Positions 3,354 to 64,000 of a stretch of 64,000 bases of DNA are shown one piece after another (positions within the stretch are counted from its first letter, which is position 1; each line of letters opens with the position of its first letter). The notes under the pieces were generated by a model. It did not search any database and was not told where the DNA came from. It was given only the letters and a program-made list of their open reading frames with translations. The DNA is from an uncultured Acidobacteriota bacterium (lineage in GTDB: Bacteria > Acidobacteriota > Polarisedimenticolia > JACPZX01 > DASXTC01), in NCBI GenBank assembly GCA_963806495.1, contig CAWDYA010000007.1, positions 371,945-435,944 on the forward strand. The letters run 5' to 3'. The position numbers and the translations under genes were made by a program.

Positions 3354-4160
3354 TCAGCGGTCCAGGCCGACCGGCCGGGCGGCGGGCCGCTTCGCGCTCA
3401 CGGCGGCCCCGGCACGGGCGGTATCGAGCACGCGGGGCAGCGACGCCCCCGGCCCCGCCATGAGCTTTCTCCGGCCGAGGCGGTGCACGAGCGTCTCGTG
3501 ACGGGTCCTGAGCCCGAGCCTCACGCGGAGCCAGGCGAGGGTGCCGAGCGAGACGTTGATGATGCCGTCGGGCACCTTGGTCCCGGCCCGGTAGTACGGC
3601 ACCTCGACGGTCCAGGAGTTTTCGATCCGGTACCCAAGGCTGCCGGCGATGATCCCCAGCTCCTGCTCGCACGAGTACTTGTAGCCGTTGTAGTAGCTGA
3701 GCAGCTCCGGCACCTTGCCCACCCGGATCACCCGCAGCCCGCACTCGACATCCGCGTAGCGGTAGCCGCTCAGCAGGGAGGCGAACAGCGAGAGACCCCA
3801 GTTGCCGATCTTCTTGAAGCGCGGGTAGTGCGAGAAGTCGCGCCGCGTGAGGAGCATGTCGAGATCCTTCGAGACGGTGGTCTCCGCCAGGCTGTCGATC
3901 GAGTCGACCGTGTGCTGCCCGTCGGCGTCGAACGTATAGAGGAGATCGTCCGGTCTGAGTTCGCCGTCCTCGAGAAGCAGCGCCACGAGCGCGAGCCCGT
4001 CCTTGAGCGCGGAGGCCTTCCCCTTGTTGACCGGGTTGTCGATGACGTAGGAGCGCGGATGCCCCTGGCTCCACCTGGCCAGGATTTCGGGCGAGGCGTC
4101 CCGCGAGCCGTCGTTGACCGCGATCGTGAGGTCCATCCGGGCGCTGAACGTCGCGAGCAC
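3354..4160 (-). CDS. Glycosyltransferase family 2 (polyprenol-phosphate sugar transferase-like)
   Basis: ORF from a GTG start. The conserved GT2 N-terminus 'SEIAVVPVYNEAQNLER' continues in frame upstream to about 4211 with no ATG/GTG/TTG; an ATG at 4213-4215 is one base out of frame, so the true start is probably about 4215 with an indel just after it. 'DADGQH' motif present. Confidence 0.8.
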   Translation of the reverse strand: MLATFSARMDLTIAVNDGSRDASPEILARWSQGHPRSYVIDNPVNKGKASALKDGLALVALLLEDGELRPDDLLYTFDADGQHTVDSIDSLAETTVSKDLDMLLTRRDFSHYPRFKKIGNWGLSLFASLLSGYRYADVECGLRVIRVGKVPELLSYYNGYKYSCEQELGIIAGSLGYRIENSWTVEVPYYRAGTKVPDGIINVSLGTLAWLRVRLGLRTRHETLVHRLGRRKLMAGPGASLPRVLDTARAGAAVSAKRPAARPVGLDR

Positions 4161-9207: not shown

Positions 9208-9360
9208 AAACTGCCCGACCATGGTGCGCCTGGCCGGACGGGGCGACCAGTGTGGAAGGCCCGGCCGGCGCGTTGGAAGGCCGCCGGCCGCCGGGGCAGG
9301 CGCATGCCGGCCGGGGCCGGCGCCCGGGGCATCCCGAGGTCTTCGCCGGGCGGCGCCAAG

Positions 9361-11583
9361 ATGAACGAAGTCAAGGGGTTGTCGGATAGCATGGAGCGCG
9401 GCGAGCGCACGGTCGTCGGGCAGTTTCAGCGAGTCACTTCCGGGTTGGTGGTGGCCACCGCCTCGGGTCTGCTCCTCGGTCTGATGGAGACGGCCGGGAT
9501 CCTCTCGCAGCACGGCGCTCCATCGGGATCGTCGATCGACATCCTCGTGACCGCCACCTGGCTGGCGTTGCCGTATGCCGCGACGATCGCGATGGCCGCC
9601 CTGATGGTCGCTTTCGCGGTTCCGGCGCCCGGTCTGTCGCGGGGGCTGGCGGCCGGGATCGGGGGCGGGGTGGTCCTGCTGCTCTGGATCAGGACGCTGG
9701 CGAACCTGGGAGAGGGGAGCGCGGCGTATCCCGTCCTGGAGCTGCTCGTCGTCGGCGTGGCCTGCGCCGGTGGCATGGCGGCCGGGATGCTGGCGGCGAG
9801 ACCGGCCCCGGGGGGAGGCCGGACGCTGATGATCGGGGCCGGTATGGCGGGGCTGGCGGCCCTGGTGGCGTCGAGCCGGAACATCCCCGGTCCTTTCGGC
9901 CGACCCGGGCCGCCCGCAGGCTTCGGCGGCCGGCTGCTCTGGGCGGTGATCGTTGCGGCGGCTGTGGCAGCCGTGATCGTGATGGCACGCGCCCTCGCCT
10001 CACGCGGGGAGGGCGCCCGGTGGCTCGTGCGGGGCCTTGCGGCCGCGAGCGCGGTCGGGTGGGTCATCTACTGCGGATCAGGTTTCGTCCACATGCTGGG
10101 TTGGTCGGGGTCCGAGCCTCGTCTGCCGGAGGCCGGCGCCGTCGAGCCGGGACGGCCCAACGTCATCCTGATATCGATCGATACCCTGCGTGCCGACCAT
10201 CTGTCGTGCTACGGCTACGGGCGGCCGACCACGCCCGGCATCGACGGGTTCGCGGCGTCCGCCGTGCTGTACCGCAACGCCTCGTCCACCGCGAGCTTCA
10301 CCCTCCCCGCGCACGCGTCCATGATGACCGGACAGTTCCCCTCGAGCCACGGCGCGACGTATCAGAACCGAGATCCGGGAAGCTTCACGCTGCGGGGCAT
10401 CCGTCCCGGCTCGCCGATGCTGGCGGAGATCCTGCGCGAGCGCGGATACGACACGGCCGCCTTCGTCAGCGGGCCGCTGCTGAGCCGGCACTTCGGCTTC
10501 GACAGGGGGTTCCGCATCTACGATGATCGGTACGACCGACTCCAGAGCGCGCGCGAGCGACTGTTCGCGCGGTCCTTCCTGTTCCGGGTCCTCTACCGCC
10601 TCGGCGTGTTCTCGGACCGCGATCTCGACGCGCAGCGCACGGCGGGGGAGGTGAACCCGCTCATGGACGACTGGCTCGCAAAGCGCCGGGGATCCACGAG
10701 ACCGTTCTTCCTCTTCGTCCACTACTGGGATCCCCACGGGCCGTACGCCCCGCCGGCCCCGCTCGACGAGCGGCCGGACGGGACTCCTATCCGGGTCGAC
10801 TACGACATGGACCGGCTGCTGATCGGCGACTACACGTACACGCCGGAGGCGCTTGCGGATCTGATCACGCTCTACGACGGCGAGATCCAGTGGGTCGATC
10901 GGCATGTCGCCGCGCTGCTCGACCGGCTGCGCGCCAACAGGCTGCTCGACGGCGCCCTGGTGATCCTGACCGCAGACCATGGCGAGAGCTTCGGTGAGCA
11001 CGATCACTGGGAGCACAGCCGGGTGCTGTACGAGGATGTGCTGCACGTGCCGTTCATCATGAAGCTGCCCGGGGAACGTGACGGCGGCCGCGTGGTCGAG
11101 GACGTCGTCGCGCAGCCCACGGACATCCTTCCCACGGTGCTCGCCGAGGCGGGGATTCAGACGCCGCCAGAGGTCGAGGGGCGGAACCTGCTCGCCTTCC
11201 TCGAGCCGGACGGTGACGCAGGTGCGTCCGGGCAGGCCGAGTCGCACGTCCGGGGGCGCGGGCTGGCGTTTGCGGAGCTCGATCGCAACGTGGACTGGCC
11301 CGAGCGATGGGGCGCCCGGTTCGACCGGGACCTGGTCTCGGCGCGGACCCTCCGTTACAAGTACATCCACTCCTCCACCGGCGAGGAGGAGCTGTACGAT
11401 CTGCGGACGGATCCGGGCGAGCTGACCAATCTGGCGTCCGTGGATCCGTCGGCGGCGTCAGCGATGCGACAGCTCGTCGAGGCATGGCGCAAGGCACTCT
11501 CGATCGCGTCGCCGGATGAGCGACAGGAGCAGATCGATGAAGGGTTGCTGGAGAATCTCAGGAGCCTCGGCTATGTCCAGTGA
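9361..11583 (+). CDS. Membrane-anchored sulfatase-like hydrolase/transferase, Thr-nucleophile type (LtaS/EptA-like), paralog 2
   Basis: Real part of ORF 9250..11583, start 'MNEVKG'. Same architecture as paralog 1 ('PNVILISIDTLRADH', 'FTLPAHASMMTG') and identical C-terminal tail 'DEGLLENLRSLGYVQ'. Confidence 0.75.
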   Translation: MNEVKGLSDSMERGERTVVGQFQRVTSGLVVATASGLLLGLMETAGILSQHGAPSGSSIDILVTATWLALPYAATIAMAALMVAFAVPAPGLSRGLAAGIGGGVVLLLWIRTLANLGEGSAAYPVLELLVVGVACAGGMAAGMLAARPAPGGGRTLMIGAGMAGLAALVASSRNIPGPFGRPGPPAGFGGRLLWAVIVAAAVAAVIVMARALASRGEGARWLVRGLAAASAVGWVIYCGSGFVHMLGWSGSEPRLPEAGAVEPGRPNVILISIDTLRADHLSCYGYGRPTTPGIDGFAASAVLYRNASSTASFTLPAHASMMTGQFPSSHGATYQNRDPGSFTLRGIRPGSPMLAEILRERGYDTAAFVSGPLLSRHFGFDRGFRIYDDRYDRLQSARERLFARSFLFRVLYRLGVFSDRDLDAQRTAGEVNPLMDDWLAKRRGSTRPFFLFVHYWDPHGPYAPPAPLDERPDGTPIRVDYDMDRLLIGDYTYTPEALADLITLYDGEIQWVDRHVAALLDRLRANRLLDGALVILTADHGESFGEHDHWEHSRVLYEDVLHVPFIMKLPGERDGGRVVEDVVAQPTDILPTVLAEAGIQTPPEVEGRNLLAFLEPDGDAGASGQAESHVRGRGLAFAELDRNVDWPERWGARFDRDLVSARTLRYKYIHSSTGEEELYDLRTDPGELTNLASVDPSAASAMRQLVEAWRKALSIASPDERQEQIDEGLLENLRSLGYVQ

Positions 11584-41495: not shown

Positions 41496-41571
41496 GGGCC
41501 GTTAGCTCAGTCGGTAGAGCATCTGCCTTTTAAGCAGAGGGTCGCTGGTTCGAGTCCAGCACGGCTCACCA
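41496..41571 (+). tRNA. tRNA-Lys (anticodon TTT)
   Basis: 76 nt with encoded CCA; cloverleaf with 7-bp acceptor stem GGGCCGT/ACGGCTC (one G-T pair), anticodon stem TCTGC/GCAGA and loop CTTTTAA, T-loop GGTTCGAGTCC. Confidence 0.85.
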
Positions 41572-44852: not shown

Positions 44853-44930
44853 GTCCCCATCGTCTAGCCAGGCCTAGGACACAGCCCTTTCAAGGCTGCA
44901 ACACGGGTTCGAATCCCGTTGGGGACGCCA
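44853..44930 (+). tRNA. tRNA-Glu (anticodon TTC)
   Basis: 78 nt with encoded CCA; acceptor GTCCCCA/TGGGGAC, anticodon loop CTTTCAA; very close to the canonical bacterial tRNA-Glu sequence. Confidence 0.85.
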
Positions 44931-51608: not shown

Positions 51609-52776
51609 CTACAACGACCTCAGCCGCCGGCAGGCCTCCGCGAGATCGTGCTCCGTCTTGGCGAAGCAGAACCTCACCTGGTTGCGGCCGTCCTGGGGAT
51701 CGGCGTAGAAGGAGGAGCCCGGCACCGAGCTCACCCCCGCGCGCGACAGCAGCAGGGCCGCTGCCTCCGCGTCCGAGGCGCATCCCAGCCGCGAGACGTC
51801 CGCCAGCAGGTAGTACGACCCCTGGGGGCGGATGACCCCCAGACCGGCCGCCTCGCAGGCGCCCGACAGGGCGTCGAGCTTGGCGGCGTACGACCGGCCC
51901 AGCTCGCGGTAGTAGGAGTCGGGCAGCCCGAAGGCCGCCACGACAGCGTGCTGCAGCGGTGTGGGCGCGCAGATGTACAGCAGGTCGTTCAGGACTCCCA
52001 TACGCGCGGTGAGCTCGCGCCGGGCCACGGCGTAGCCGAGCCGCCAGCCGGTCATGCTGAAGGTCTTGGAGAACCCCGAGAGGGTAATGGTGGAGATCCT
52101 CCATTCCCGGCAGTGAGGCGAGGCTGACGTGGCGGTTGCCGTCGTACAGGATGTACTCGTAGATCTCGTCCGTGAGGGCGATAACGCCCCACTTGTGGCA
52201 CAGCCCGCCGATCCGCTCCAGCTCCGACTTCGTGAACACCTTGCCGGAGGGGTTCGATGGCGTGTTGACCACCACCATCCGGGTGCGGGGGCCGAACGCC
52301 GCCTCGAGCTCCGCTTCGTCGAACCCCCACTGCGGCGGCCGCGTTCTGACGAACCGCGGCTCAGCCCCGCACATCTTCAGGATGTTCACATGGTAGGAGT
52401 AGAACGGGGAGAAGATCACCGCCTCGTCGCCCGGGTCGAGCAGGGCGAGACAGGCGATGGCGAAGCCCCCGGTGGAACCGACGGTGACGAGCACTTCGGT
52501 GTCCGGGTCGCAGGCGATCCCGTTGTACGACTTCATCTTGTCCGCGACGGCACGGCGCAGGTCGTCGACACCCTCGAACTTGGAGTAGATGTTCCGGTCG
52601 GAGCGGATCGCCTCCATCGCGGCGTCCTTGACCGGATCGGGAGTGGGCTGGTCGCAAATCCCCTGGCCGAGATTGATGCCGCCGGCCTTCTCGCACTCGC
52701 GGGACATGCGGCGTATGTCCGACTGGACGAGACCCTCGGCGCGGCGGGCGAACCTGATGCGGGGCGTGTCGGTCAT
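51609..52776 (-). CDS. Class I/II PLP-dependent aminotransferase (frameshifted)
   Basis: N-terminal part in ORF 51604..52776 ('VNTPSNPSGKV', 'DEIYEYI'); C-terminal part in ORF 51609..52055 ('ITLSGFSKTFSMTGWRLGY', 'VRFCFAK'). Frames join near 52050. Confidence 0.75.
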
Positions 52777-52953
52777 CGCACGACTATACTACATCGACCT
52801 CGGGGCACCTCTGGTTGGCGATGGCTACAAGACCCTGGCCGTGAGGGTTGCCGGCGCATGGCTACAGCCTCAACCTGACGGGTGGCCGTCGGGCTCGGCG
52901 CGGACTACGTCCGCACCGTCGCCAGCCGCAGGGTACCGTGCGGAGGACATGCT

Positions 52954-53154
52954 ATGAGCAATCGGCGCAACCCTGTCCTGACCTTCTTGGTCATAGGGTT
53001 CATGGGAGTCGTGGCCATCTCCAACATCGCCGGCAAACCCCGGTTCGAGACGTTTCACACGACGGACGTTCTGCAATTGGTTGGCGCCGGCATGTGCTTC
53101 GGTGTCGCCCTCGTTGCGCTGGTCAATGTCGTCCGCGGCCCGCGTTCGAGCTGA
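52954..53154 (+). CDS. Small two-helix membrane protein (66 aa)
   Basis: Part of ORF 52882..53154 from 'MSNRRNPVLTFLVIGFMGVVAISNIAG' with GGAGGA Shine-Dalgarno; two hydrophobic segments. Confidence 0.4.
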   Translation: MSNRRNPVLTFLVIGFMGVVAISNIAGKPRFETFHTTDVLQLVGAGMCFGVALVALVNVVRGPRSS

Positions 53155-53712
53155 CCCCGAATCCGATCCCTGTGCAATCAGGATACGCCCTGTGATGTGA
53201 GATGGGAGGCGGCTTGCGGGGAGTCCCCGAGCGCACGATGCAGCCCAAAACGCGAATGGAGCCGACGCGCCAAGCGAGCCTGTGGCGCGCGGCTCGTTTG
53301 CTAGGGGGGGCCGAAGACCGACAACGCCCCCCCCAGCGCGAGGTGCCCCTGCCGCCTCGCCGGATGGAGATCCCCCCTCGGCCTGCCCGAGCGAGCGACC
53401 AGGAAGGCAGGGAGACGCAGGCCTGGAACGGCCTGCCATGTTGGCCAACGGGGCCTTGGACAGGCGCACCTGAAGACTGCACGGGAGGCGAGCGAGGGTA
53501 GGGGGGCGGTGGCAGGTCCGTCCAGGTGCCTATTTCCGAAGGTCAGCGGAAGCGGTGGTCAACTACTTCTTGTCACCACCTGCTACCAGTTTGCTACCGA
53601 CTCGGCGTGAACGGGGGGCGGTTGGCCTCAACGTCGCGGCTCGGCGGATGGTGCCCTTCCTTCTGGCGAATGGCCCCGAGTCCGGCGGGGTCGGCCCCCC
53701 GACCAGACCACG

Positions 53713-53740
53713 TTGACAGGGGTCGACTCCGGGCTATAAT
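53713..53740 (+). promoter_or_regulatory. Consensus sigma70 promoter (TTGACA, 16-nt spacer, TATAAT)
   Basis: Both hexamers match consensus exactly; about 60 nt upstream of the outer-membrane protein start, which has a GAGGAG Shine-Dalgarno. Confidence 0.6.
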
Positions 53741-54368: not shown

Positions 54369-54817
54369 ATCACCCGAAGGTCTTGACAATCCCGCCACGG
54401 TCGGCGTAGAGTTCGCCCAACGCCACTGATCGTTTCGTACATGGACGAGAAACGGGGTCCCTGATCCTCCGTTCGAGTCACCTCAGACCGAACATTCGGT
54501 CGGGGAGGGGCACGATCGAAGGGTGGGGACGGATCCACATTGACTGCGCTGCAGAGACGGGGTATATAGCCGGAAGCCGCTGGTCAATTTCGAAGCGAAC
54601 CAACCCTGCCAGAGCTTCGACTATCAGTAACTGAGGATGACGATCGAGGGGGGCGTGTATCCCCCTCGTGAGAGAGTTCAGGTAAACCGTAACAACCATA
54701 GCTGCCGACGCGCTTTTTGCGGCGGCGGATGCTGACGTCCAGACCGGTGTCCGGACGCCCCGGAGTCGGGTCGAGCGGGGGTATGTCCCCCTCCGCCGGC
54801 GGGTCTCCGCAGAAGGA

Positions 54818-56716
54818 GTGGTCCAGGTGACGTTGGACAGAAAAGCCCACGCGCTTCTGATCCTCGACATCCTCGCGGTGTTCGGCACGGCCCTGGGCGC
54901 GAATTACCTGCGTTTCGACCAGGTCTATCCCGCGGAGTTCACCCACTTCAGCAAGTGGCTGCTCCTCGACATCGTCATCACACCGATCGTCTTCTATGCC
55001 ATGGGGCTGTACCGCAGCGTCTGGCGCTATGCGAGCATCGCCGACCTCAAGCTGATCACATACGCGGTGGGCACCCGCACGATCGTGCTCATCTCCCTCT
55101 TCATCTTCCTCGGATACGATCGCGGCGTGCCGCGCTCGACCACGATCCTCCAGGCGATACTCCTGCTCGGCGCGGTGGGCGGGATCCGGCTCTTCACGCG
55201 CGTCCAGCGTGAGAGGACCCAGCAGAAGAGCCTGAGGAAGAAGACACCGGTGCTGATCGTCGGCGCCGGCGACGCGGGTGAGATCATTCTCAGGGAGCTC
55301 AAGGGGAACACGACGCTGCCCTACAATCCAGTGGGCTTCGTCGATGACGACCCCAGCAAGTGGGGCGTCCGGATCCACGGCGTGCCGGTGCTTGGCGGCA
55401 CGAAGGACATCCCGATGATCGCGCCGCAACGGCATGTCAGCGCGGCGATCATCGCCATCCCCTCTGCTACCGGGCAGGAGCTCACCAGCATCTACCAGGC
55501 GTGTCGCGCGGCCGGCGTGCGAACCAAGACCGTGCCCCCGGTGAGCCAGCTTTTCGAGGGACGGCTGAGCCTGAGCCAGATCCGCAACGTCGAGCTCGAG
55601 GACCTGCTCGGGCGGGATCCGGTGAACGTCGAGATGGATGCGATCCGGACGACCCTCGGCGGCAAGCGCGTGCTGATCACCGGCGGCGCCGGCTCGATCG
55701 GACGCGAGCTGGCGAGGCAGGTGGCCGAGCTCGGTCCGGAGCGTCTGGTCGTTTACGATCGCAACGAGAACTCGATGTACTTCACCGAGATGGAGCTGCG
55801 CAAGCGGTTCCCCGCGGTCGCGATCGACTGTATCGTCGGCGACATCCTGGATCGCCCGAGGCTGGGCGAGGTGATGGAGAGCGCCGCGCCGCACGTCGTG
55901 TTCCATGCCGCCGCGTTCAAGCACGTGCCGATGATGGAGGTCAACGCCACCGAGGCCTTCAAGAACAACGTCTTCGGCACGCGCAACGTCGCGGAGAAGG
56001 CCGCCGAGCTGGGGGTGGAACGGTTCGTGCTCATCTCGACGGACAAGGCGGTCAACCCGATCAGCGTCATGGGCGGCACCAAGCGTCTCGCGGAGCTGGT
56101 GCTCCAGGAGATCCCGGGGACGACACGGTTCGTCTCGGTGCGGTTCGGCAACGTGCTCGGCAGCGACGGCTCGGTGATCCCCCTGTTCAAGAAGCAGATT
56201 GCCGAGGGGGGGCCGGTCACCGTCACCCACCCGGAGGTGTCGCGCTACTTCATGACCATCACCGAGGCGGTGCAGCTCGTGCTGCAGGCCGTGACGATGG
56301 GCACCGGCTCGGAGGTCTTCCTTCTCGACATGGGCAAGCCGATCAAGATCGTCGACCTGGCGAGAAACCTGATCGAGCTGTCCGGCTTCCGGCCGCACGA
56401 GGACATCGAGATCGTGTTCACCGGGCTGCGGCTTGGCGAGAAGCTCCACGAGGAGTTGTACTACCGCGGCGAGGCATGGCTCGACACGACGCACAAGAAG
56501 ATCCTCAAGTTCGGCAACGGGCATCATGCGCCGGCAGGCGTCCTCGCCAGGCTCAAGCTGATGGAGCACGCGCTGCTCAACTCTCCCGCCTCCGAGATGG
56601 ACGGTGTGGTGAGACGCGCTCTCGACGAGTTGATCCCCGAGTTCAAGGGTCCCAAGCCCAAGGACACCCGGGAGCCTCTGCCGGGTCGGCCTTCCGTTCG
56701 CGCCGCGTATATCTAG
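54818..56716 (+). CDS. Membrane-anchored NDP-sugar 4,6-dehydratase/epimerase (CapD/WbpM/PglF-like)
   Basis: 632 aa; N-terminal helices, Rossmann 'VLITGGAGSIGREL', 'FHAAAFKHVPMME', 'STDKAVNP'. The GTG at 54827 may be the real start (better spacing from the AAGGAG Shine-Dalgarno). Confidence 0.85.
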   Translation: MVQVTLDRKAHALLILDILAVFGTALGANYLRFDQVYPAEFTHFSKWLLLDIVITPIVFYAMGLYRSVWRYASIADLKLITYAVGTRTIVLISLFIFLGYDRGVPRSTTILQAILLLGAVGGIRLFTRVQRERTQQKSLRKKTPVLIVGAGDAGEIILRELKGNTTLPYNPVGFVDDDPSKWGVRIHGVPVLGGTKDIPMIAPQRHVSAAIIAIPSATGQELTSIYQACRAAGVRTKTVPPVSQLFEGRLSLSQIRNVELEDLLGRDPVNVEMDAIRTTLGGKRVLITGGAGSIGRELARQVAELGPERLVVYDRNENSMYFTEMELRKRFPAVAIDCIVGDILDRPRLGEVMESAAPHVVFHAAAFKHVPMMEVNATEAFKNNVFGTRNVAEKAAELGVERFVLISTDKAVNPISVMGGTKRLAELVLQEIPGTTRFVSVRFGNVLGSDGSVIPLFKKQIAEGGPVTVTHPEVSRYFMTITEAVQLVLQAVTMGTGSEVFLLDMGKPIKIVDLARNLIELSGFRPHEDIEIVFTGLRLGEKLHEELYYRGEAWLDTTHKKILKFGNGHHAPAGVLARLKLMEHALLNSPASEMDGVVRRALDELIPEFKGPKPKDTREPLPGRPSVRAAYI

Positions 56717-56766: not shown

Positions 56767-57459
56767 ATGAGGCGTTACGTGCCGTACATGACCGGTCCAT
56801 TCCATATCGATGCGAGGGGAGGGCTTCCGGCCGTGCTCTGTGCCGCCATGGTGCTGCTCGCGCCGCCGTCATGGACGGGTCTTCTCGCGGCTGCCCAGGA
56901 TGATGACCAGCAGGCGCAGGCCGTCGAGGGCGTCCCCGGGGCGACGCCGCCGAACGTGCTCGCGGCCGAGGCTGCATCCGACTATGTCATCGGGGTGGAG
57001 GATGTCCTCTACATCTCGGTGTGGAAGAACCCGGATCTGTCGCGCGAGGTGCCCGTGAGACCGGACGGCAAGATCACGCTGCCGCTCATCGACGACGTGG
57101 ACGCCGTCGGGCTGACGCCGTTGCAGCTCAAGGAGGAGCTGACGAAGCGGTGGAAGTCGTTCATCACGGCGCCCGAGGTCTCGGTCATCGTGACCCAGGT
57201 GAACAGCCTGAAGGTCTACATGGTGGGGGAGATCGCCAAGCCGGGGATCCTGGTGCTCAAGGGCAAGACGCGCCTGCTGCAGGCGATCTCGCTGGCCGGG
57301 GGCTTCACCAATTTCGCCGATCGTTCCAAGATCATCGTGCTGAGAGCCACGGGTAACAACGAGAAGCGGATGGAATTCAACTACAAGAAGATCGTGTCGG
57401 GCAGCCGGCCTGAGGACAACATCGTCCTCCTGCCGGGCGACACGGTCATCGTGCCGTGA
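56767..57459 (+). CDS. Polysaccharide export protein (Wza-like)
   Basis: 230-aa C-terminal part of ORF 55360..57459 from 'MRRYVPYM'; 'YVIGVEDVLYISVWKNPDLS' and SLBB-like 'VYMVGEIAKPGILVLKGKTRLLQAISLAGG'. The upstream 470 aa of the track ORF is artefact. Confidence 0.75.
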   Translation: MRRYVPYMTGPFHIDARGGLPAVLCAAMVLLAPPSWTGLLAAAQDDDQQAQAVEGVPGATPPNVLAAEAASDYVIGVEDVLYISVWKNPDLSREVPVRPDGKITLPLIDDVDAVGLTPLQLKEELTKRWKSFITAPEVSVIVTQVNSLKVYMVGEIAKPGILVLKGKTRLLQAISLAGGFTNFADRSKIIVLRATGNNEKRMEFNYKKIVSGSRPEDNIVLLPGDTVIVP

Positions 57460-57466
57460 GCGCGGC

Positions 57467-58761
57467 GTGCGCCCCGTGCGGATCGGCAAGGCATTCGGAG
57501 GGATCCTGATCGTGACCGCCGTCGTGGTGGCATCGGGCACAGGAGACCCGGCACGCGCGGACGTGTGGGATTTCCACGGCGGCGTGGGGCTCAATCTGGG
57601 CTACACCGAAAACCCCGGCTTCGTCAGCAAGACGAATCCCAACTACGATCCGAACTCGCCGGTCTGCAACCCCAGCGACCCCCTGTACGATCCGGGCGCG
57701 TCCGCCTGCCAGCAGACCACCCCGAGCGAGGCGCGGCGCGGCACGAGAAGCGGATCCCTGAGCTCTGAACGGGGGCCTGTCGGGCGCCTGGGCCACGACG
57801 TCGTTCGACGTGACCTACTCGCCGAGCCTGAACTACTACAAGCGGTTCTCGGGTCTGGACAATGCCAGCCACCGGCTCACCTCGAACTGGCGTCATGACT
57901 ATTCGCCGCGCGCCAGGTTGAGTCTCAGCGAACTGGTCACCTATACGCCGGAGCAGGACGTTGATCCGAACCGACTGAGCTCGAACACGGTTATCGTGCA
58001 GCGCACGACGACCACCATCAGCAACTTCCGCGGCGCGCTGGTGTTCGAAAAGAGTCACAAGACGACGCTCAACTGGACCTTCAGGTCCAACGAGCGTGCC
58101 TTCAGCTCCGACAACTACATCGACACCGGCGAGCAGGAGGCCGGCATGGAGTATCGTCGGATGCTCGGGCGCTTCAGCTCCTTCAACACCGGATATGACT
58201 TCGGCCTGTTCAACTACAAGGGACGGTACCCCGGGGCGGATCACCACAACGTCCACGTGGGGTACGGCTCTGGCCTTCGGCCCCGCCTTCCACGCCGGCG
58301 CCTGGGAGTCGGCTACAACGTGCTGGTGCCCGACGACCCTAACCAGAAGAACTCCGATGGTCTGTTCACCAATGCCACGGTCGGCTTCCACTCGGGTCCG
58401 ACTCGCGGGAACCTGGGATACTCACGGGGGATCCGTCAGGGGGGCGGCGTCTTCGCAGCGTCCCGGGCCGCAAACAGCTTCGGCAACATCCGCTGGGACA
58501 TGACTCCGCACCATCTATGCCGAGATGATGGCCACCTACAACGTCAACGAGCGGATCGCCGGCTCGACGGGCACCGCCCAGGCGAATGACACGGTCAGGA
58601 CCTTCAACGGACGGACCTCCCTCAGCTACCAGCTGGCGCAGGACTGGCGCCTCACTGCCTCGTTCACGCACTACAGGCAGAGCCGTCCTCCGAGTGTCTC
58701 GACCGCGCCCGACGTGAGGAGCAACCGGTACTGGCTCGGTGTCTCATGGAGCTATCGCTGA
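57467..58761 (+). CDS. Putative outer-membrane beta-barrel protein of the EPS export block (two or more frameshifts)
   Basis: Spread over ORFs 57467..57898, 57810..58589 and 58525..58761: signal-like 'MRPVRIGKAFGGILIVTAVVVASG', strand-like 'VTYSPSLNYYKRF', C-terminal 'RYWLGVSWSYR'. Stop overlaps the next start (TGATG). Confidence 0.5.
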
Positions 58762-60269
58762 TGGAGAACCTGATCAACATCCCGGCGTTGCTCAACAGCC
58801 TCAAGCGGCTCTGGTGGGTGCCCGATCCTGACGCTTGCTCGCCGGGATCGGGTTCTCCATCGACTTCGGCCGTAAGTTGCCGAAGATCTACCAGGCGAAC
58901 ACGCTGATCCTGGTCGAGCCGCAGAAGATCCCCACAAACTACGTCAAGCCGATCGTCACCACACCGATCGAGAACAGGCTGAAGACAATCCAGCAGCAGG
59001 TGACGAGCCGCAGCCGCATCGAGACGATCATCGAGTCGGAGAATCTGTACGCCAACCTGCGCGACAGGGTTCCGATGGAGGATCTGGTCGCACGCGTCAA
59101 CCGTGGTATCCGCCTGGAGGTGCGGGGGACGAGCACGTTCCGCATCTACTACGAGGATCGGGATCCCCTGGTCGCGGCGCGCGTTGCCAACGCCCTCGCG
59201 GAGCTGTTCATCAGCGAAAACGTCAACTCGCGCAAGGCCGAGGCCAAGAGCACGACCAGCTTCCTCGAGCAGCAGCTCGGCGAGAGCAAGACGAGCGCTC
59301 GAGCACCAGGAGAAGCTGATCACGGAGTTCAAGAAGACACATCTTGCCGAGCTGCCGACACAGCGGGACGTCAACTTCAGGATGCTGGAGGGGTTCCGCG
59401 CACGCCTGCAGACGACCATGGACGCCATCAGCAAGGAGGAGGACCGGAAGATCCTTCTCCAGTCCCAGCTCGCCGACCTGCCGCAAAGCGGCGCCACCAG
59501 CAAGCAGACGCTCGCCACGCAGCTCGAGGATCTCCGCAAGAAGCTGGTTGAGCTGCGCGGGATCTACACCGAGCAGCATCCCGAGGTCACGCTGGTCAAG
59601 CGGCAGATCGCGCAGCTCGAGCAGGATCTGACGGCCCAGCAGGCCGAGAAGGACCCGAACGCGGCTGCGCCCGCCGCGCCGTCTCTGCGCGAGCAGCAGC
59701 TCACGCAGCAGATCGCGGAAAGCGACCTGCGCCTCAAGGATCTGAAGCGCGACGCAGGCCGGCTGCAGAACGACATCCAGGACTACGAGAACCGGCTGGC
59801 CAACGCCCCGAAGAACGAGCAGGAGCTCCTGACGCTGCAACGCGACTACGACATCATGCAGCAGAGCTACCTCGAGCTGCTGCGCAACAAGACGCAGGCG
59901 GAGATGGCCGAGTCTCTCGAGCAGGAGAGGCAGGGCGAGCAGTTCGTCGTGCTCGACAAGGCGGTGCCTCCGGCGCGTCCCTACAAGCCCAACCTGACGC
60001 AGATCGTCGGGATCGGCTCCGCGATCGGATTCCTTGGCGGCATCGGCATCGCCTTCCTGTTCGACCTCCTGCGTCCGCGGTTCCGCACCGAGGACGAGCT
60101 GACGGCCGCCTACGGGATCCCGGTGCTGGTGAGCATCCCGTCGATTGTGGCCGATCGGCCGAGAAATGTGACGACGTGGAGCCGCAGGCTGCTGCTCGGG
60201 ACAGGGATCCTCGTCGCATTGATCACCGCCGTGGCCGTGATCGGTTTGATGACGGGGTGGGGCCGATGA
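58761..60269 (+). CDS. Polysaccharide chain-length determinant (Wzz/GumC-like) (frameshifted)
   Basis: ATG at 58761 ('MENLINIPALLNSLKRLWW'), continued in ORF 58835..59551 ('LAGIGFSIDF...KIYQANTLILVEPQ') and ORF 59103..60269 (coiled-coil region, C-terminal helix 'GIGSAIGFLGGIGIAFLF'). Frame changes near 58824-58837 and 59293-59298. Confidence 0.65.
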
Positions 60270-60985
60270 GTACCGCAGCCTGGCGGCGCGACCCGGTCCT
60301 CGTCAGCCTGTTCGACGCCACCGGTGTGGCTGGAGAGCAGTTCCGCAAGCTTCAGGTCAAGCTGCGGGCGCTCAAGAACGCCACCGGCGGCAAGATGACC
60401 TCCGTCGTGGTGACCAGCCCGCTCATGGGCGAGGGGAAAACGTCCTGCGCGACCAATCTCGCGCTAGCCATGGCGAACGAACCGCAGCGCCGGGTGCTGT
60501 TGATCGACTGCGATGTCAGGAAGCCGCGGATCCAGGACCACATCGACATCGCCCCGAGGCTTGGCGTCGTCGAGATTCTCGAAGGGAAGGCTACGGTGGA
60601 GGAGGCCACCGTGACCATGCCCGGGGGCAACCTCGATCTGGTGGCGCTGTGCGGCGCCCAGCGCAGCAACGGCAGCCGTCCGACCTCCCTGCCGATGGAG
60701 CGGCTGAAGGACCACTTCCAGGCCCTGGCCGGCCGCTACGAGTTCATCGTCTGCGATGCACCCCCGCTGCTGCCGACGGCCGACGCCGGGGCGCTCGTCG
60801 ATATCTGCGACGGCACGATCATGGTCGTCCGGGCCGGTATCACACCCCGGCCCGCAGTGGCGAAGGCGCTGGCCTCAATCGACAAGAAGAAGTTGATCGG
60901 TTTCCTGCTCAACGGCGTCACCGAGAGCCGCATGGGCAAGTACTACTACCAGTACTACGCCGGTACGTCGAAGGGGGATAAATGA
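60266..60985 (+). CDS. BY-kinase-type P-loop ATPase (CpsD/Wze-like)
   Basis: ORF 60176..60985 with start chosen at 'MSTAAW' (ATGA overlap with the Wzz-like stop); Walker A 'SPLMGEGKTS', Walker A-prime 'LLIDCDVRKP', Walker B 'FIVCDAPP'. Confidence 0.75.
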   Translation: MSTAAWRRDPVLVSLFDATGVAGEQFRKLQVKLRALKNATGGKMTSVVVTSPLMGEGKTSCATNLALAMANEPQRRVLLIDCDVRKPRIQDHIDIAPRLGVVEILEGKATVEEATVTMPGGNLDLVALCGAQRSNGSRPTSLPMERLKDHFQALAGRYEFIVCDAPPLLPTADAGALVDICDGTIMVVRAGITPRPAVAKALASIDKKKLIGFLLNGVTESRMGKYYYQYYAGTSKGDK

Positions 60986-61025
60986 AGCGCCCGGCGATCG
61001 CCGGTGGTGGGGCCGATGGTACGTC

Positions 61026-61515
61026 GTGAGCACTCGGCCGCGCCGGGAGGAGTTCGCCCGTGTGATGCTGGAGCAGCAGGGGCTGGAGGCGTTCCTTCCA
61101 ATGGTCCTCGAGTGGTCCACGGGAAGAGGCCGGATGCGCGAGCAGGTCAGGCACCTCTTCCCCGGTTACCTCTTCGTACGGATGGCCGGGCCCCGGGATT
61201 ATCCGAAGGTGCAATGGACTCCGGGTGTGCGCCGTCTGCTCGGAGCCGGCGAGGAGCCGGAGCCCGTGGACGACGCTCTCGTCGTCGGGATCGCGGGTCG
61301 GATGGGGCACCGCGGATATCTTGTGCAGCGGCCCGAGCTGCATGCCGGAGATCCCGTCGAGGTGCGGTACGGGCCGCTTCTCCGGTCTGTTCGGGGTGGT
61401 GGAGTCACCGAGCACGGCTCGGGAGCGGGTGAGGGTCCTGCTGAGCTTGTTCGACCGTTCGACCTGCGTGGAGCTGGAGGTGAAGGACCTCATCCGATTA
61501 GGGCACCGCTGCTGA
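61026..61515 (+). CDS. NusG-paralog transcription antiterminator (UpxY/LoaP/RfaH-like) (frameshifted)
   Basis: NGN-domain motifs 'WYVVSTRPRREEF' and 'LFPGYLFVR' in ORF 61026..61595; KOW-like end 'FSGLFGVVESP...RVRVLLSLFDRSTCVELE' in ORF 61225..61515. Frames join at 61376-61378. Start uncertain: 'WYV' lies in frame upstream of the GTG. Confidence 0.6.
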
Positions 61516-61575
61516 AAGCCGACGGTGGAGGACGTGAGAGCACCATGGGAGGGGAGATCATGAGAATGGTGGCAC

Positions 61576-61782
61576 ATGGACAGAGACGGCGATGAGATCC
61601 TGACGAGCCGGGAGGCACAGAAGCTTCTCAAGATAGGCAGAACGAAGCTCTGGGCGCTGACGAAGAACGGACATCTTCCGGCTTACAGGATCGGGGACGG
61701 GAAAACCTCCGCCCTTCGATACAAGAGGGTGGAGTTGATGAAGTGGCTCGATCGGAACCGCATCGTCTTCAAAAAGGACTGA
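61576..61782 (+). CDS. Excisionase/AlpA-type helix-turn-helix DNA-binding protein
   Basis: 68 aa; 'LTSREAQKLLKIGRTKLWALTKNGHLPAYRIG' resembles the Xis/HTH_17 family. Confidence 0.6.
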   Translation: MDRDGDEILTSREAQKLLKIGRTKLWALTKNGHLPAYRIGDGKTSALRYKRVELMKWLDRNRIVFKKD

Positions 61783-61802
61783 GGTGGGGGGCCGTCCTGC
61801 GC

Positions 61803-63184
61803 GTGCTGGCGGGAGCCGGCGCGGCGCTGCTGACGGGTGTCGCCCTGTACGCCGTTGCGGTGGAGCCCTGGACCGTGATCGAGACCGATGTCTCGATCCC
61901 GCTGACCGGCCTGCCCGGTCCGCTGGCCGGTTACAGGATCCTTCTCCTATCGGACTTCGAGGCGGACGCTCCCGGAACGCGCGAGCGTCAGGTGGCGGCG
62001 ATCGCCGCGCGCGCGCGTCCCGATCTGATCCTGGTGGCGGGGGACCTCGTGGACAAGGGTATCCATGGCAAGCCGAGGGTTCGGGCATACGGGAAGATGG
62101 CGGCGTACCTCGGCGGCCTGCCGGCGCCCGACGGCGTCTGGTTCGCGCAGGGGCACGGAGAGAGCGCCTCGAGGATCGACGAGGAGGATCTGCTGCGCGC
62201 TCTGGAGGCGGGCGGCGTGCATCCGCTCCTCAACGAGGTGGCCTTCATTCAAAGAGAGGGCGCCTCGCTCGCGCTGATCGGCGTACGGATCCACGACTAC
62301 GCGGGGAAGGGGAAGTGGACGGTGGGACACGACGGCGTCATCACGGAGGGCCCGGGCAACCGGGAGTCCTACGTGGAGTACCGCGAGCCGGGGTGCGCGG
62401 CGTGGAGAGACTATGAGCTCAGCGGCAGGATGCGTTTCGGGAGCCCCCACGACTGGGCCGGCTTCCTGGTGCACAGCCGGCTGGGAAAGCGGGAGGACCG
62501 TTTCTACTTCGGTGTCCGTCGTGACTATCTGCCCTACCTCGGGGTCTCGGCGCACGGCACCGTCTACACCAGCGGCACCTTCACGCGGGCCGAGCAGATG
62601 AGCGCCGGCGTCTGGCACCGTTTCCACGCGAAGGTGGAGACCACCAACGCGGGCGTCCGTTTCCGGGCGCGGGCGTGGCGGGAGACCGAGAGCGAGCCCG
62701 AAGGGTGGGATTTCGACTATCTCGACGCCACCGACACCCGGATCGAGTCGGGCACCGTCGGCCTGTACGGCGAGGGGCCCGGAGTCAAGACCTTCTCCGA
62801 CCTGAGGATCACGGCGGGGGACGGGACCGGGCGCTGGGAGGAGCCGAAGGGCGCGGACTTCCTCATGGGCCTGCTCTCCCGGGTGCCCGAGGGGACACCG
62901 GCGATCGTGCTTTCCCACACGCCCGATATCTACGAGGACGCGGCCGAGCTGGACGTGCCGCTGACGCTTGCGGGCCACACACGGGGGGGCAGATCCGACT
63001 GCCGTTCTTCGGCCCGATCGTCGTCGACACGAGCGTGGGGCGCGACAGGGCTTCAGGGCTCTCCGGTCGCAACGGGCGTTTCCTCTATGTGACCCGGGGT
63101 ATCGGCACCAGCCGGCTGCCTGCGCGTTTCCTCGCGCCGCCCGAGGCCACGGTCATCACGCTGACGGGCGACCGCGATGACTAG
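61803..63184 (+). CDS. Membrane-anchored metallophosphoesterase (calcineurin-like) (frameshift at a G7 run)
   Basis: ORF 61743..63092 holds 'ILLLSDFEAD', 'LILVAGDLVDKG', 'LAGHT'; ORF 62675..63184 holds the continuation 'GGQIRLPFFGPIV'. The join is a run of seven G at about 62953-62959; one more G restores 'LAGHTRGGQIRLPFFGP'. Start GTG at 61803 is tentative. Confidence 0.6.
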
Positions 63185-64000
63185 CCTGCTCTACATCGCG
63201 ATGACCGTGGTCGCCATGGCGCTGCTCCTGCGCGGGGCACGATGGGGGATTGCAGCACTGGCGTTTCTGATCCCGCTCTCCGCGCGTCTGCCCAGTCTGC
63301 CGATCCCGACGCTCAACATGCAGAACTTCCTGGTGCTGGCCGGTTTCGCCTGGCTGCTGGCCACTTCGGCCAAACAGGGGAGGGTGGGGCGCCTGAAGCT
63401 CGCCGTCCCGATCGGCATGTTCATCTTCCTCGTGACGGCGGCCTACCTCACCACGAAGTTCTTCTGGATCCCCAACGAGTGGGCGAGGCGCTACGATCCG
63501 TACCAGGTTACCCTGGCGTACAAGTGCCTGCTGACGTGTTTTCTGCTCTACGCTCTCGGCTGTCTCGTTGCGCGCCGCGCCGAGGACGTCCGGCTCGCCG
63601 TCATGGGACTGCTGGCAGGCACCGCGTTCGAAGGGCTTTTCGTGTGCCTCGAGGTGGTGCTGCACGGGCCTGCGCGCGCCAACGGCCATCTCGCGGAGCC
63701 GAACAGCGCGGGGGCGTATCTCGCCTGGGCCGTGGCTCTCGGCTTCGGGGTGCTGCTCGCTCTCGGGCTCTCGGGATGGGCCGGCCGTCTGGCGATCGGC
63801 ACGGTCGGGTTCTGCGCGGTGGGTCTCATATTCACGCTGTCGCGGGGCAACTGGCTGGCGGCGGTCGCGGGAGCGTCGTTCGTCGCCGTGCTCAGGGATC
63901 GACGCGTCCTGATCCTCATTATCATCGCCCTCGTGACTCACGATCTCTGGCTGCCGAACAAGGCGCAGAACCGTCTCGACGAAACGCTCGATCACGTGGA
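63177..64000 (+). CDS. O-antigen ligase/polymerase-like (Wzy_C-type) membrane protein (partial; runs off window end)
   Basis: Not in the track (no stop in window). Plus-strand frame from ATG 63177 reads 'MTSLLYIAMTVVAMALLL...' with multiple helices and 'FTLSRGNWLA', the hallmark of the Wzy_C/O-antigen ligase family. The antisense track ORF 63156..63995 has garbage composition. Confidence 0.55.
   Translation, partial: MTSLLYIAMTVVAMALLLRGARWGIAALAFLIPLSARLPSLPIPTLNMQNFLVLAGFAWLLATSAKQGRVGRLKLAVPIGMFIFLVTAAYLTTKFFWIPNEWARRYDPYQVTLAYKCLLTCFLLYALGCLVARRAEDVRLAVMGLLAGTAFEGLFVCLEVVLHGPARANGHLAEPNSAGAYLAWAVALGFGVLLALGLSGWAGRLAIGTVGFCAVGLIFTLSRGNWLAAVAGASFVAVLRDRRVLILIIIALVTHDLWLPNKAQNRLDETLDHV

Follow-up and report, generated by a model that had tools for sequence, protein, structure and literature searches.

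We analysed a 64,000-nt stretch of DNA (the window) for two adjacent genes on its forward strand: a gene of the NusG family (60982-61515) and a gene for a 68-residue helix-turn-helix (HTH) protein (61576-61782). Both lie within one co-directional polysaccharide operon, in the order CapD - Wza - OMP414 - GNVR - AAA_31 ATPase - NusG - HTH - phosphoesterase-like - Wzy_C. A first reading, made from the letters alone (the sequence-only reading), had described a NusG paralog with the motifs WYVV and LFPGYLFVR and a KOW-like tail, a 68-residue excisionase-type HTH protein next to it, a BY-kinase-like gene upstream, and phosphoesterase and O-antigen-ligase-like genes downstream. All of these are present (NGN domain, PF02357, 63 bits; HTH_17, 45 bits), and their order is conserved in related contigs. 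The account that we favour, and hold to be reasonably probable, is that an operon-embedded specialised NusG paralog (NusG-SP) acts on its own exopolysaccharide operon, that the HTH protein is a separate, BldC-like regulator, and that the frameshifts seen in the window are assembly errors. The two genes and their neighbours are listed here; L-numbers (L001 etc.) denote related loci that we fetched via the HTH protein or CapD.

60982..61515, forward strand: specialised NusG paralog (NGN + KOW), ~177 residues once repaired (profiles, alignment, AlphaFold2 model of an orthologue)
61576..61782, forward strand: 68-residue stand-alone winged-helix protein (HTH_17), BldC-like (Pfam, NCBIfam, AlphaFold2, Foldseek)
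54818..56716, forward strand: CapD/PglF-type NDP-sugar dehydratase, membrane-anchored, first gene of the operon (Pfam Polysacc_synt_2, 375 bits; 89-93% identity to L001/L002)
56767..57459, forward strand: Wza-like polysaccharide export protein (tblastn, 75-83% identity to orthologues with Poly_export/SLBB Pfam matches)
57512..58761, forward strand: 414-residue outer-membrane-type protein (OMP414), two frameshifts in the window (intact L001/L002 proteins match across three frames)
58761..60269, forward strand: GNVR chain-length determinant, three single-base insertions (orthologues intact, 501 residues, Pfam GNVR)
60266..60985, forward strand: BY-kinase-like P-loop ATPase (best match NCBIfam TIGR03018; Pfam AAA_31)
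61743..63184, forward strand: 480-residue phosphoesterase-like protein, 40-nt overlap with the HTH gene, one frameshift at ~62982 (profiles, orthologues)
63177..64000, forward strand: Wzy_C protein (O-antigen ligase/polymerase-like), continuing past the end of the window (orthologue matches)

The NusG paralog is thus the sixth gene of the operon. An aminotransferase gene on the reverse strand, an OMP_b-brl gene and a leader precede CapD, in the same order in related contigs. Longer relatives continue beyond Wzy_C with GT2, DegT, formyltransferase, PIG-L, Bac_transf, two GT4 genes and a CapK-like gene; there the operon is at least 16 kb long, its genes all facing the same way and overlapping or joined by short junctions, and our best explanation takes it to hold 17 or more genes. 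The ATPase scores 131 bits against TIGR03018 (XrtA-associated tyrosine autokinase), below the cut-off of 230.65, and no exosortase was seen in the loci examined. There is no second NusG-like open reading frame (ORF) in the window. The source names of the homologues indicate Acidobacteriota, class Candidatus Polarisedimenticolia, and this class is probably the host lineage of the NusG-SP.

Reading frame of the NusG paralog

The gene starts at ATG 60982, overlapping the stop codon of the upstream ATPase gene (ATGA), and stops at TGA 61515; the overlap would be consistent with translational coupling of the NusG-SP to the ATPase gene. The start at 61026 given by the sequence-only reading is an artefact: the GTG found there is located within the WYVV strand and is simply the first one in a broken frame. 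The same reading had seen a frameshift, and the frame is indeed disrupted, by two indels and not one. Alignment of the DNA with six intact orthologues, together with direct reading, places the first, a missing base, at ~61007/61008, between the ATG and the conserved WGRWYVV, and the second, an extra C, at 61377, where it splits GP from F within the KOW domain. Read in all frames across 60.9-61.8 kb, the NGN-type stretch WYVVSTRPRREEF...LFPGYLFVRM... stands in one frame and the KOW-type tail FSGLFGVVESPSTARERVRVLLSLFDRSTCVELEVKDLIRLGHRC, up to its stop, in another; WYVV, LFPGYLFVR and the KOW tail are all to be found.

The exact 68-residue HTH protein occurs on ten metagenome contigs. Those that reach far enough carry a complete NusG-family gene of 176-182 codons just upstream of the HTH gene, directly after the ATPase gene wherever the contig includes it. 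Besides the window copy, the gene is present, intact and in the same position, in L001-L004, L007, L008, L010, L090, L091, L093 and L120. Programmed frameshifting was considered and rejected, since the orthologues are all in frame at both positions. Once repaired, the window frame has no internal stop codons, and its ratio of nonsynonymous to synonymous substitutions (dN/dS) is 0.10-0.13 against L001-L003 and 0.38 against the closest relative, L004; among the intact orthologues the ratio is 0.18-0.23. The repaired gene is under purifying selection.

Comparable breaks occur in many genes around it. Relative to intact orthologues, the aminotransferase gene has one, the gene for OMP414 two, the GNVR gene three insertions and the phosphoesterase-like gene one, which brings the count to at least nine frameshifting indels within 51.6-64 kb, with further ones elsewhere in the window. 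Besides the two in the NusG gene, those of this region lie at 52092, ~57762, ~58505, 58821-58835, 59294 and ~62982. Outside the operon the breaks are indicated by segmentation of coding potential and by Pfam profile coverage: at apparent frameshifts (~12200, ~25290, ~27945, ~38140, ~38667, 52092 and elsewhere) coding potential changes frame without a gap and profile matches are incomplete. The unrelated genes so affected encode a GDSL lipase, a sulfatase, a peptidase-like protein, a phosphodiesterase-like protein and the aminotransferase. For instance, the ORF at 36871-38928 matches the Phosphodiest profile only at positions 135-222 of 342, Lipase_GDSL_2 is matched over positions 1-95 of 178, and the C-terminus of the sulfatase is split. 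Identical CapD and HTH proteins are encoded on a contig of 456,094 bp; near-identical copies elsewhere lie on contigs of at most 12 kb, and every other contig recovered with the operon is shorter than the 456,094-bp one. We infer an indel-prone long-read assembly. The CapD gene of a public metagenome-assembled genome (L010, 3714-5602) is also split over two frames, so that frame errors are not unique to the assembly of the window.

The two breaks in the NusG gene could instead be genuine, marking a recently inactivated pseudogene in an operon that no longer needs its NusG-SP. A gene of only 534 nt carries both of them, one removing the natural start and the other scrambling the KOW domain; moreover, relatives have lost the gene repeatedly, with 3'-end remnants in L092 and L095 and a clean absence in L094/L121, L113, L110-112 and L124. 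We nevertheless regard decay as unlikely. Single-base indels of the same type affect the aminotransferase, outer-membrane protein, GNVR and phosphoesterase genes as well as unrelated ones, a load implausible for a viable genome; the repaired frame is free of stops, and its dN/dS of 0.10-0.13 lies below the 0.18-0.23 of the intact orthologues. Given the intact orthologues, the purifying selection and the similar indels in many unrelated genes, the two frameshifts are most likely assembly errors, as judged from these comparisons.

Family membership and loss of the NusG paralog

The NGN domain matches Pfam PF02357 at 63.4 bits (cut-off 22.2), Foldseek matches it to the NGN domains of NusG and RfaH, and the repaired tail aligns to the KOW domain of NusG. 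The whole protein falls short of the curated NCBIfam cut-offs: 83 bits against 144.5 for RfaH TIGR01955 (57-58 against 124 for the RfaH model NF006534), 66 against 135.7 for NusG TIGR00922, 62 against 100 for UpxY NF033644 and 52.6 against 125 for LoaP NF033641. With all four families' cut-offs failed, the paralog belongs to none of NusG, RfaH, UpxY and LoaP. The comparison with RfaH, UpxY and LoaP had been proposed in the sequence-only reading; it has now been run, and it leaves the protein below the threshold of all three.

Scores for single domains, and the AlphaFold2 model, were obtained on P0001, an intact orthologue with 87% identity. Its NGN domain scores 65.5 bits on the RfaH profile and 27.2 on that of NusG, whereas its KOW domain scores 34.9 bits for NusG and 22.8 for RfaH. 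The model (57 homologues; predicted local distance difference test (pLDDT) 90.5) predicts an NGN domain and a five-stranded KOW barrel, with strands in residues 125-172. Foldseek matches the model to full-length NusG and to the recruited beta-form of RfaH, and to autoinhibited RfaH over the NGN domain only.

We compared individual residues in RfaH numbering, using the markers of Wang et al. 2020 (PMC7593976). The high-affinity contact with RNA polymerase is represented by a Phe at the F56 position (YLFV), invariant in the family alignment, and the K10 position is basic (R). Three of the residues with which RfaH reads its ops element are replaced by alignment (H20 by M, R23 by Q, R73 by P), while Q24 stays Q; the autoinhibition position E48 holds R. 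In the KOW domain the Rho-contact loop is half kept (L-F-D-R vs I-F-G-R). By this alignment the residue profile is that of an 'unknown NusG-SP'.

It is scarcely credible that the protein is instead the housekeeping NusG of the organism. A phmmer search against sequences from the Protein Data Bank (PDB) does place E. coli NusG (53 bits) ahead of RfaH (37 bits), and the KOW domain is NusG-like; but the protein reaches 66 bits where TIGR00922 demands 135.7, its NGN domain is clearly RfaH-like, and its gene sits in a polysaccharide operon between ATPase and HTH genes and not in a secE-nusG-rplK-rplA context. It is also missing from closely related operons, which would be unexpected for a universal factor. 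Grouping with housekeeping NusG, the outcome that the sequence-only reading had named as fatal to its proposal of a specialised paralog, is thus not observed, and that proposal stands: on profile, context and distribution, the gene is classed as an operon-embedded NusG-SP, not a housekeeping nusG.

The loci from which the gene is absent are L092/L110-112, L094/L121, L095, L097-L101, L113, L115, L122, L123 and L124. In most of them the HTH gene directly follows the ATPase gene; its predecessor is CapD in L122 and L123 and a Wzy_C gene in L115. Remnants of the NusG 3' end persist upstream of the HTH gene, in the interval after the ATPase gene, in L092 (2939-3068) and L095 (1141-1270), reading ...RDLVRLGHRC and RDLLRVGRRC, which indicates that absence from these two loci is the result of deletion. 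In a neighbour-joining tree of CapD (260 columns) the NusG-less pair L094/L121 is nested in the NusG-containing group with 86% bootstrap, again implying loss. The gene distribution thus describes the NusG paralog as facultative and repeatedly lost in sister lineages.

Specialised NusG paralogs govern capsule, lipopolysaccharide, antibiotic and conjugation operons. To our knowledge, the mechanism of recruitment is known in detail for RfaH only, with LoaP as the sole other clear case. The literature recognises as a class those NusG-SPs whose genes lie inside long envelope/exopolysaccharide operons, and takes them to act in cis (PMC7593976, PMC7819879); one published NusG-SP cluster was noted as adjoining an HTH regulator (PMC7593976; PMC7819879). 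Our scan of species-representative genomes found at least 584 relatives of the window NusG-SP, of which we inspected 80 loci from many phyla: the NusG-SP often stands beside Wza, GNVR or ATPase genes, before or after them, in agreement with this literature. The NusG-SP of the window therefore belongs to an already known kind of operon-specific antiterminator.

It is instructive to set it beside the individual systems. Like RfaH of E. coli, it is a NusG paralog for a long envelope/polysaccharide operon, its NGN domain scores best on the RfaH profile, and it shares the F56-type Phe and the K10-type basic residue; unlike RfaH, which is encoded by a stand-alone gene, it is encoded within its presumed target operon, the ops element and H20, R23, R73 and E48 are not found in its leader or sequence, and its KOW domain is predicted to be a beta-barrel where that of RfaH is an alpha-hairpin. 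With clusters CL2-CL8 of Wang et al. 2020 (PMC7593976; CL7 in Shewanella, CL4 beside an HTH regulator), which we compared by description only, it shares the position within an operon, envelope/exopolysaccharide neighbours, an adjoining HTH regulator and presumed action in cis, but it comes from another phylum (Acidobacteriota/Polarisedimenticolia). UpxY of Bacteroides is also dedicated to a single polysaccharide locus and has a small partner gene next to it; however, UpxY opens its locus and the window NusG-SP lies mid-operon, and whereas the partner UpxZ is not an HTH protein, the neighbour here is a winged-HTH protein that exists also without the NusG-SP. LoaP, finally, is a NusG-SP that adjoins its target cluster and is recruited via the leader, where it binds an RNA hairpin; no conserved hairpin is supported in the leaders of the window clade.

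The 68-residue HTH protein

The HTH protein matches Pfam HTH_17 (PF12728) at 45 bits and barely passes the NCBIfam 'excise' domain TIGR01764 (29.6 vs 28.8 bits). Its AlphaFold2 model (pLDDT 84) shows helices at residues 11-18 and 22-31, a beta wing and a helix at 51-60. The top Foldseek matches are the BldC-DNA complexes 6ama/6amk, with template-modelling (TM) scores of 0.77-0.82, a root-mean-square deviation of ~2 Å, ~20% identity and a probability of 1.00 but an E-value of ~0.01; MerR N-terminal domains come next and excisionases after them. A phmmer search against PDB sequences gave only spurious ankyrin matches and no BldC. BldC itself, a stand-alone regulator of 68 residues that resembles MerR, occupies direct repeats in head-to-tail fashion and is the founding member of a family described as one to 'radiate throughout eubacteria' (PMC5859096). 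BldC of Streptomyces and the window protein both have 68 residues, a MerR-like winged HTH and no dimerisation or effector domain; they differ in that BldC acts in development while the window gene sits in a polysaccharide operon. From this predicted fold we read the HTH protein as a putative BldC-like transcription regulator of the operon.

It is also the most conserved product of the locus, with 76-96% identity where its neighbours show 40-65%. Against L002/L003 its nonsynonymous divergence is zero (dN = 0) at a synonymous divergence (dS) of ~0.65, indicating that the constraint acts on the protein and not on the DNA. The family has the consensus DEILTSREAQxLLKIGRTKLWxLTKxGxLPAYRIGxGKTSALRYKR and more than 200 clusters, and is found also in a differently organised polysaccharide locus (L116/117). 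Where export genes are missing (L096, L122, L123), the HTH gene remains with CapD. The protein is best explained as a core, older component of the operon that acts independently of the NusG paralog.

Several observations concern the setting of the HTH gene. The export block (Wza-OMP-GNVR-ATPase) is missing in L122, L123 and L096, in which the HTH gene (9328-9534, 3619-3852 and 375-575, respectively) directly follows CapD and heads the glycosyltransferase genes. In L118 and L119 a 67%-identical member (10001-10231) is flanked by a UvrD-like helicase gene and clpB and has no polysaccharide genes around it, so the family is not strictly tied to polysaccharide loci. The HTH gene of the window (61576-61782) and that of L004 (3019-3225) are 100% identical in nucleotide sequence; over the adjacent ATPase gene the two loci share only 80% identity, and over the first half of the NusG gene they are almost the same, which suggests that recombination has made the operon a mosaic.

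We hold it very improbable that this protein is the excisionase (recombination directionality factor) of some integrated mobile element. In favour of such an identity are the passed 'excise' cut-off and the presence of RdfS, Pukovnik Xis and Tn916 Xis among the weaker fold matches. Yet the called genes of ~25 related loci and of their flanks (up to ~10 kb) include no integrase or recombinase Pfam match, and without a recombinase domain in any of these genes the role is unsupported. The gene keeps a fixed, syntenic position in the operon even between lineages in which the proteins encoded next to it share only 40-60% identity, and the protein is under very strong purifying selection. The 'Xis-type' label of the sequence-only reading thus holds for the fold and fails for the function, the nearest solved structure being BldC and the behaviour that of a conserved core regulator; its remark that no integrase accompanies the gene is correct here and in the related loci.

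We also considered HTH-NusG as a general gene pair. No member of the HTH family was found near the NusG-SP in 79 distant loci, and this idea was rejected: by this comparison the pairing is a lineage-specific juxtaposition, not a conserved two-gene module.

Leader elements and proposed action

The leader of CapD is 449 nt long and contains two conserved promoter-like sites. The comparison of leaders across relatives, which the sequence-only reading had suggested, yielded these two sites (P1 and P2), a box after P1, and a further box that we call the TAAC box.

54383..54412, forward strand: P1, promoter-like site TTGACA-18-TAGAGT at the start of the CapD leader (consensus scan, 10/12)
54420..54429, forward strand: box ACGCCACTGA immediately downstream of P1, covering ~+1 to +10 of the putative transcript (leader comparison)
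54540..54569, forward strand: P2, promoter-like site TTGAC-N17-GTATATAG, the most widely conserved leader element
54686..54699, forward strand: TAAC box ACCGTAACAACCAT in the 5' untranslated region (UTR), ~120 nt downstream of P2 and ~128 nt upstream of the CapD start; candidate recruitment site

The motif TAAC[ACT]A is present in all five leaders of NusG-containing loci and in none of the seven leaders of NusG-less loci, with ~7 occurrences elsewhere in ~230 kb of clade sequence. In the alignment of the five NusG-containing leaders TAAC is the only invariant run of the distal leader, and in L094/L121, a lineage that has lost the NusG gene, the box is degenerate, the homologous block reading CCCAAC. 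NusG-family NGN domains read motifs on the non-template strand: the NGN domain of RfaH reads ops, and NusG of Bacillus reads TTNTTT. The TAAC box may therefore be regarded as a reasonable candidate recruitment site for the NusG-SP.

The other elements are less closely tied to NusG. P1 is conserved in the window, L001, L002, L010, L120, L094, L121 and L115, and P2 in 8/12 related leaders, with and without NusG alike, L122 having the close variant TTGAC-N17-GTATACA. Four NusG-containing leaders have the post-P1 box in exact form (ACGCCACTGA), and L120 has ACGCCACTT; as ACGCCACT the box occurs in 5/5 NusG-containing leaders, in a close variant in the NusG-less outgroup L115, and not in L094/L121. 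The variant in L115 weakens this box as a NusG-specific signal, and the box is probably ancestral. As the sequence-only reading had noted, there is no clear ops-like element: our search found no exact match to ops (GGCGGTAGnnTG) in the window and none with up to one mismatch in the leader, and the two one-mismatch matches in the window (~30.1 and ~41.6 kb) are fewer than chance predicts. Rfam returned nothing for the leader region at 52.7-54.9 kb at E≤1, neither a known riboswitch nor a leader RNA. For the whole window, at gathering thresholds, it returned two tRNAs only, with genes at 41496-41568 and 44853-44927.

Two features lie upstream of the OMP_b-brl gene. An insertion of ~920 bp in the window (52790-53705) splits the otherwise conserved GACTATACCACGTTGACA; relatives have only 100-225 nt at that position. 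The insertion includes a 90-codon ORF (52882-53154) whose product has a hydrophobic stretch and shows no similarity in any fetched locus. At 53713-53740 stands a promoter with the perfect sigma-70 consensus, TTGACA-16-TATAAT (12/12), conserved with TATAATGCG in L002, L010, L113 and L120. A third observation concerns L010: the stretch from the NusG-SP stop to the HTH start contains TAACCAAGCTGACYTGGTC three times in tandem (10506-10549; period 19 nt), every repeat beginning with the TAACCA motif of the leader box.

Could the HTH protein be the factor that recruits NusG? The BldC-like protein might serve as a specificity subunit: bound to DNA of the promoter or leader, it would place the NusG paralog on RNA polymerase, after the manner of Q, AlpA or GafYZ. 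The two genes are adjacent in all NusG-containing loci, the NusG-SP is without the DNA-reading residues H20, R23 and R73 of RfaH, and L010 has three tandem TAACCAA repeats between the NusG and HTH genes. Small HTH proteins that act in antitermination are known, namely AlpA (PMC7969949, PMC9371919) and GafYZ (PMC11150451). AlpA of Pseudomonas aeruginosa, a small excisionase-type HTH protein, is thus a precedent for processive antitermination; but the window protein has no match to Pfam Phage_AlpA, AlpA is outside its top 50 fold matches, and the AlpA name attached to a few of its relatives is an automatic JGI label only. Furthermore, many loci that have no NusG paralog retain the HTH protein, at 76-94% identity, none of the 79 distant NusG-SP loci has a family member nearby, and the TAAC box is missing from NusG-less loci with a 94%-identical HTH protein, which shows that the box tracks NusG and not the HTH protein. 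We consider a loading role improbable, and the TAAC box as an HTH operator was rejected on the same observation.

We return to the account in which the NusG-SP acts on its own operon and the HTH protein is a separate regulator. The RfaH-like NGN domain would bind the clamp helices of RNA polymerase transcribing the exopolysaccharide operon and displace housekeeping NusG; the KOW domain, a NusG-like beta-barrel, probably forms the link between this polymerase and the lead ribosome. Pausing and Rho-dependent polarity would be suppressed, leading to expression of the distal assembly and glycosyltransferase genes. The operon's own mRNA would encode the NusG-SP, whose translation would be coupled to that of the ATPase gene upstream. 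Because it is made from this mRNA and the ops-reading residues are missing, it probably loads in cis, possibly with help from the TAAC box in the non-template strand of the 5' leader. The HTH protein would regulate initiation, independently of the NusG-SP.

A number of points weigh against this account. The antitermination activity is one that we infer from family membership and context, and the partly kept Rho-contact loop means that an anti-Rho role is not assured. The AlphaFold2 prediction of a beta-barrel KOW domain leaves fold switching possible. Intrinsic terminators within the operon do not exceed the number expected by chance. The correlation of the TAAC box with NusG draws on ~3 independent NusG-containing lineages, and the box could be an ordinary lineage-specific feature of the leader; the RNAalifold consensus of the five NusG-containing leaders has a positive (unfavourable) covariation term and gives no support for a hairpin. 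Two frameshifts in 534 nt are slightly above the expectation from the local rate, and the gene, deleted in several sister lineages, is dispensable, leaving some small chance of genuine decay in the window.

A more far-reaching pair of linked readings is tentative, and we think it somewhat on the unlikely side: the TAAC box, on the non-template strand of the 5' UTR, may be an undescribed recruitment signal of the NusG-SP, and the BldC-like protein an unrecognised, nearly invariant master regulator of Polarisedimenticolia exopolysaccharide loci. If this is true, the TAAC box would play a part comparable to that of ops in the case of RfaH, or of TTNTTT in that of Bacillus NusG.

The case shows that indel-rich assemblies can make functional genes resemble pseudogenes. 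The presence and absence of NusG in otherwise syntenic operons offers a comparative handle on what a cis-encoded NusG-SP needs of its leader and on the fate of an operon once the factor is lost. The BldC-like protein would extend a poorly characterised family of regulators to the polysaccharide operons of an uncultured acidobacterial class.

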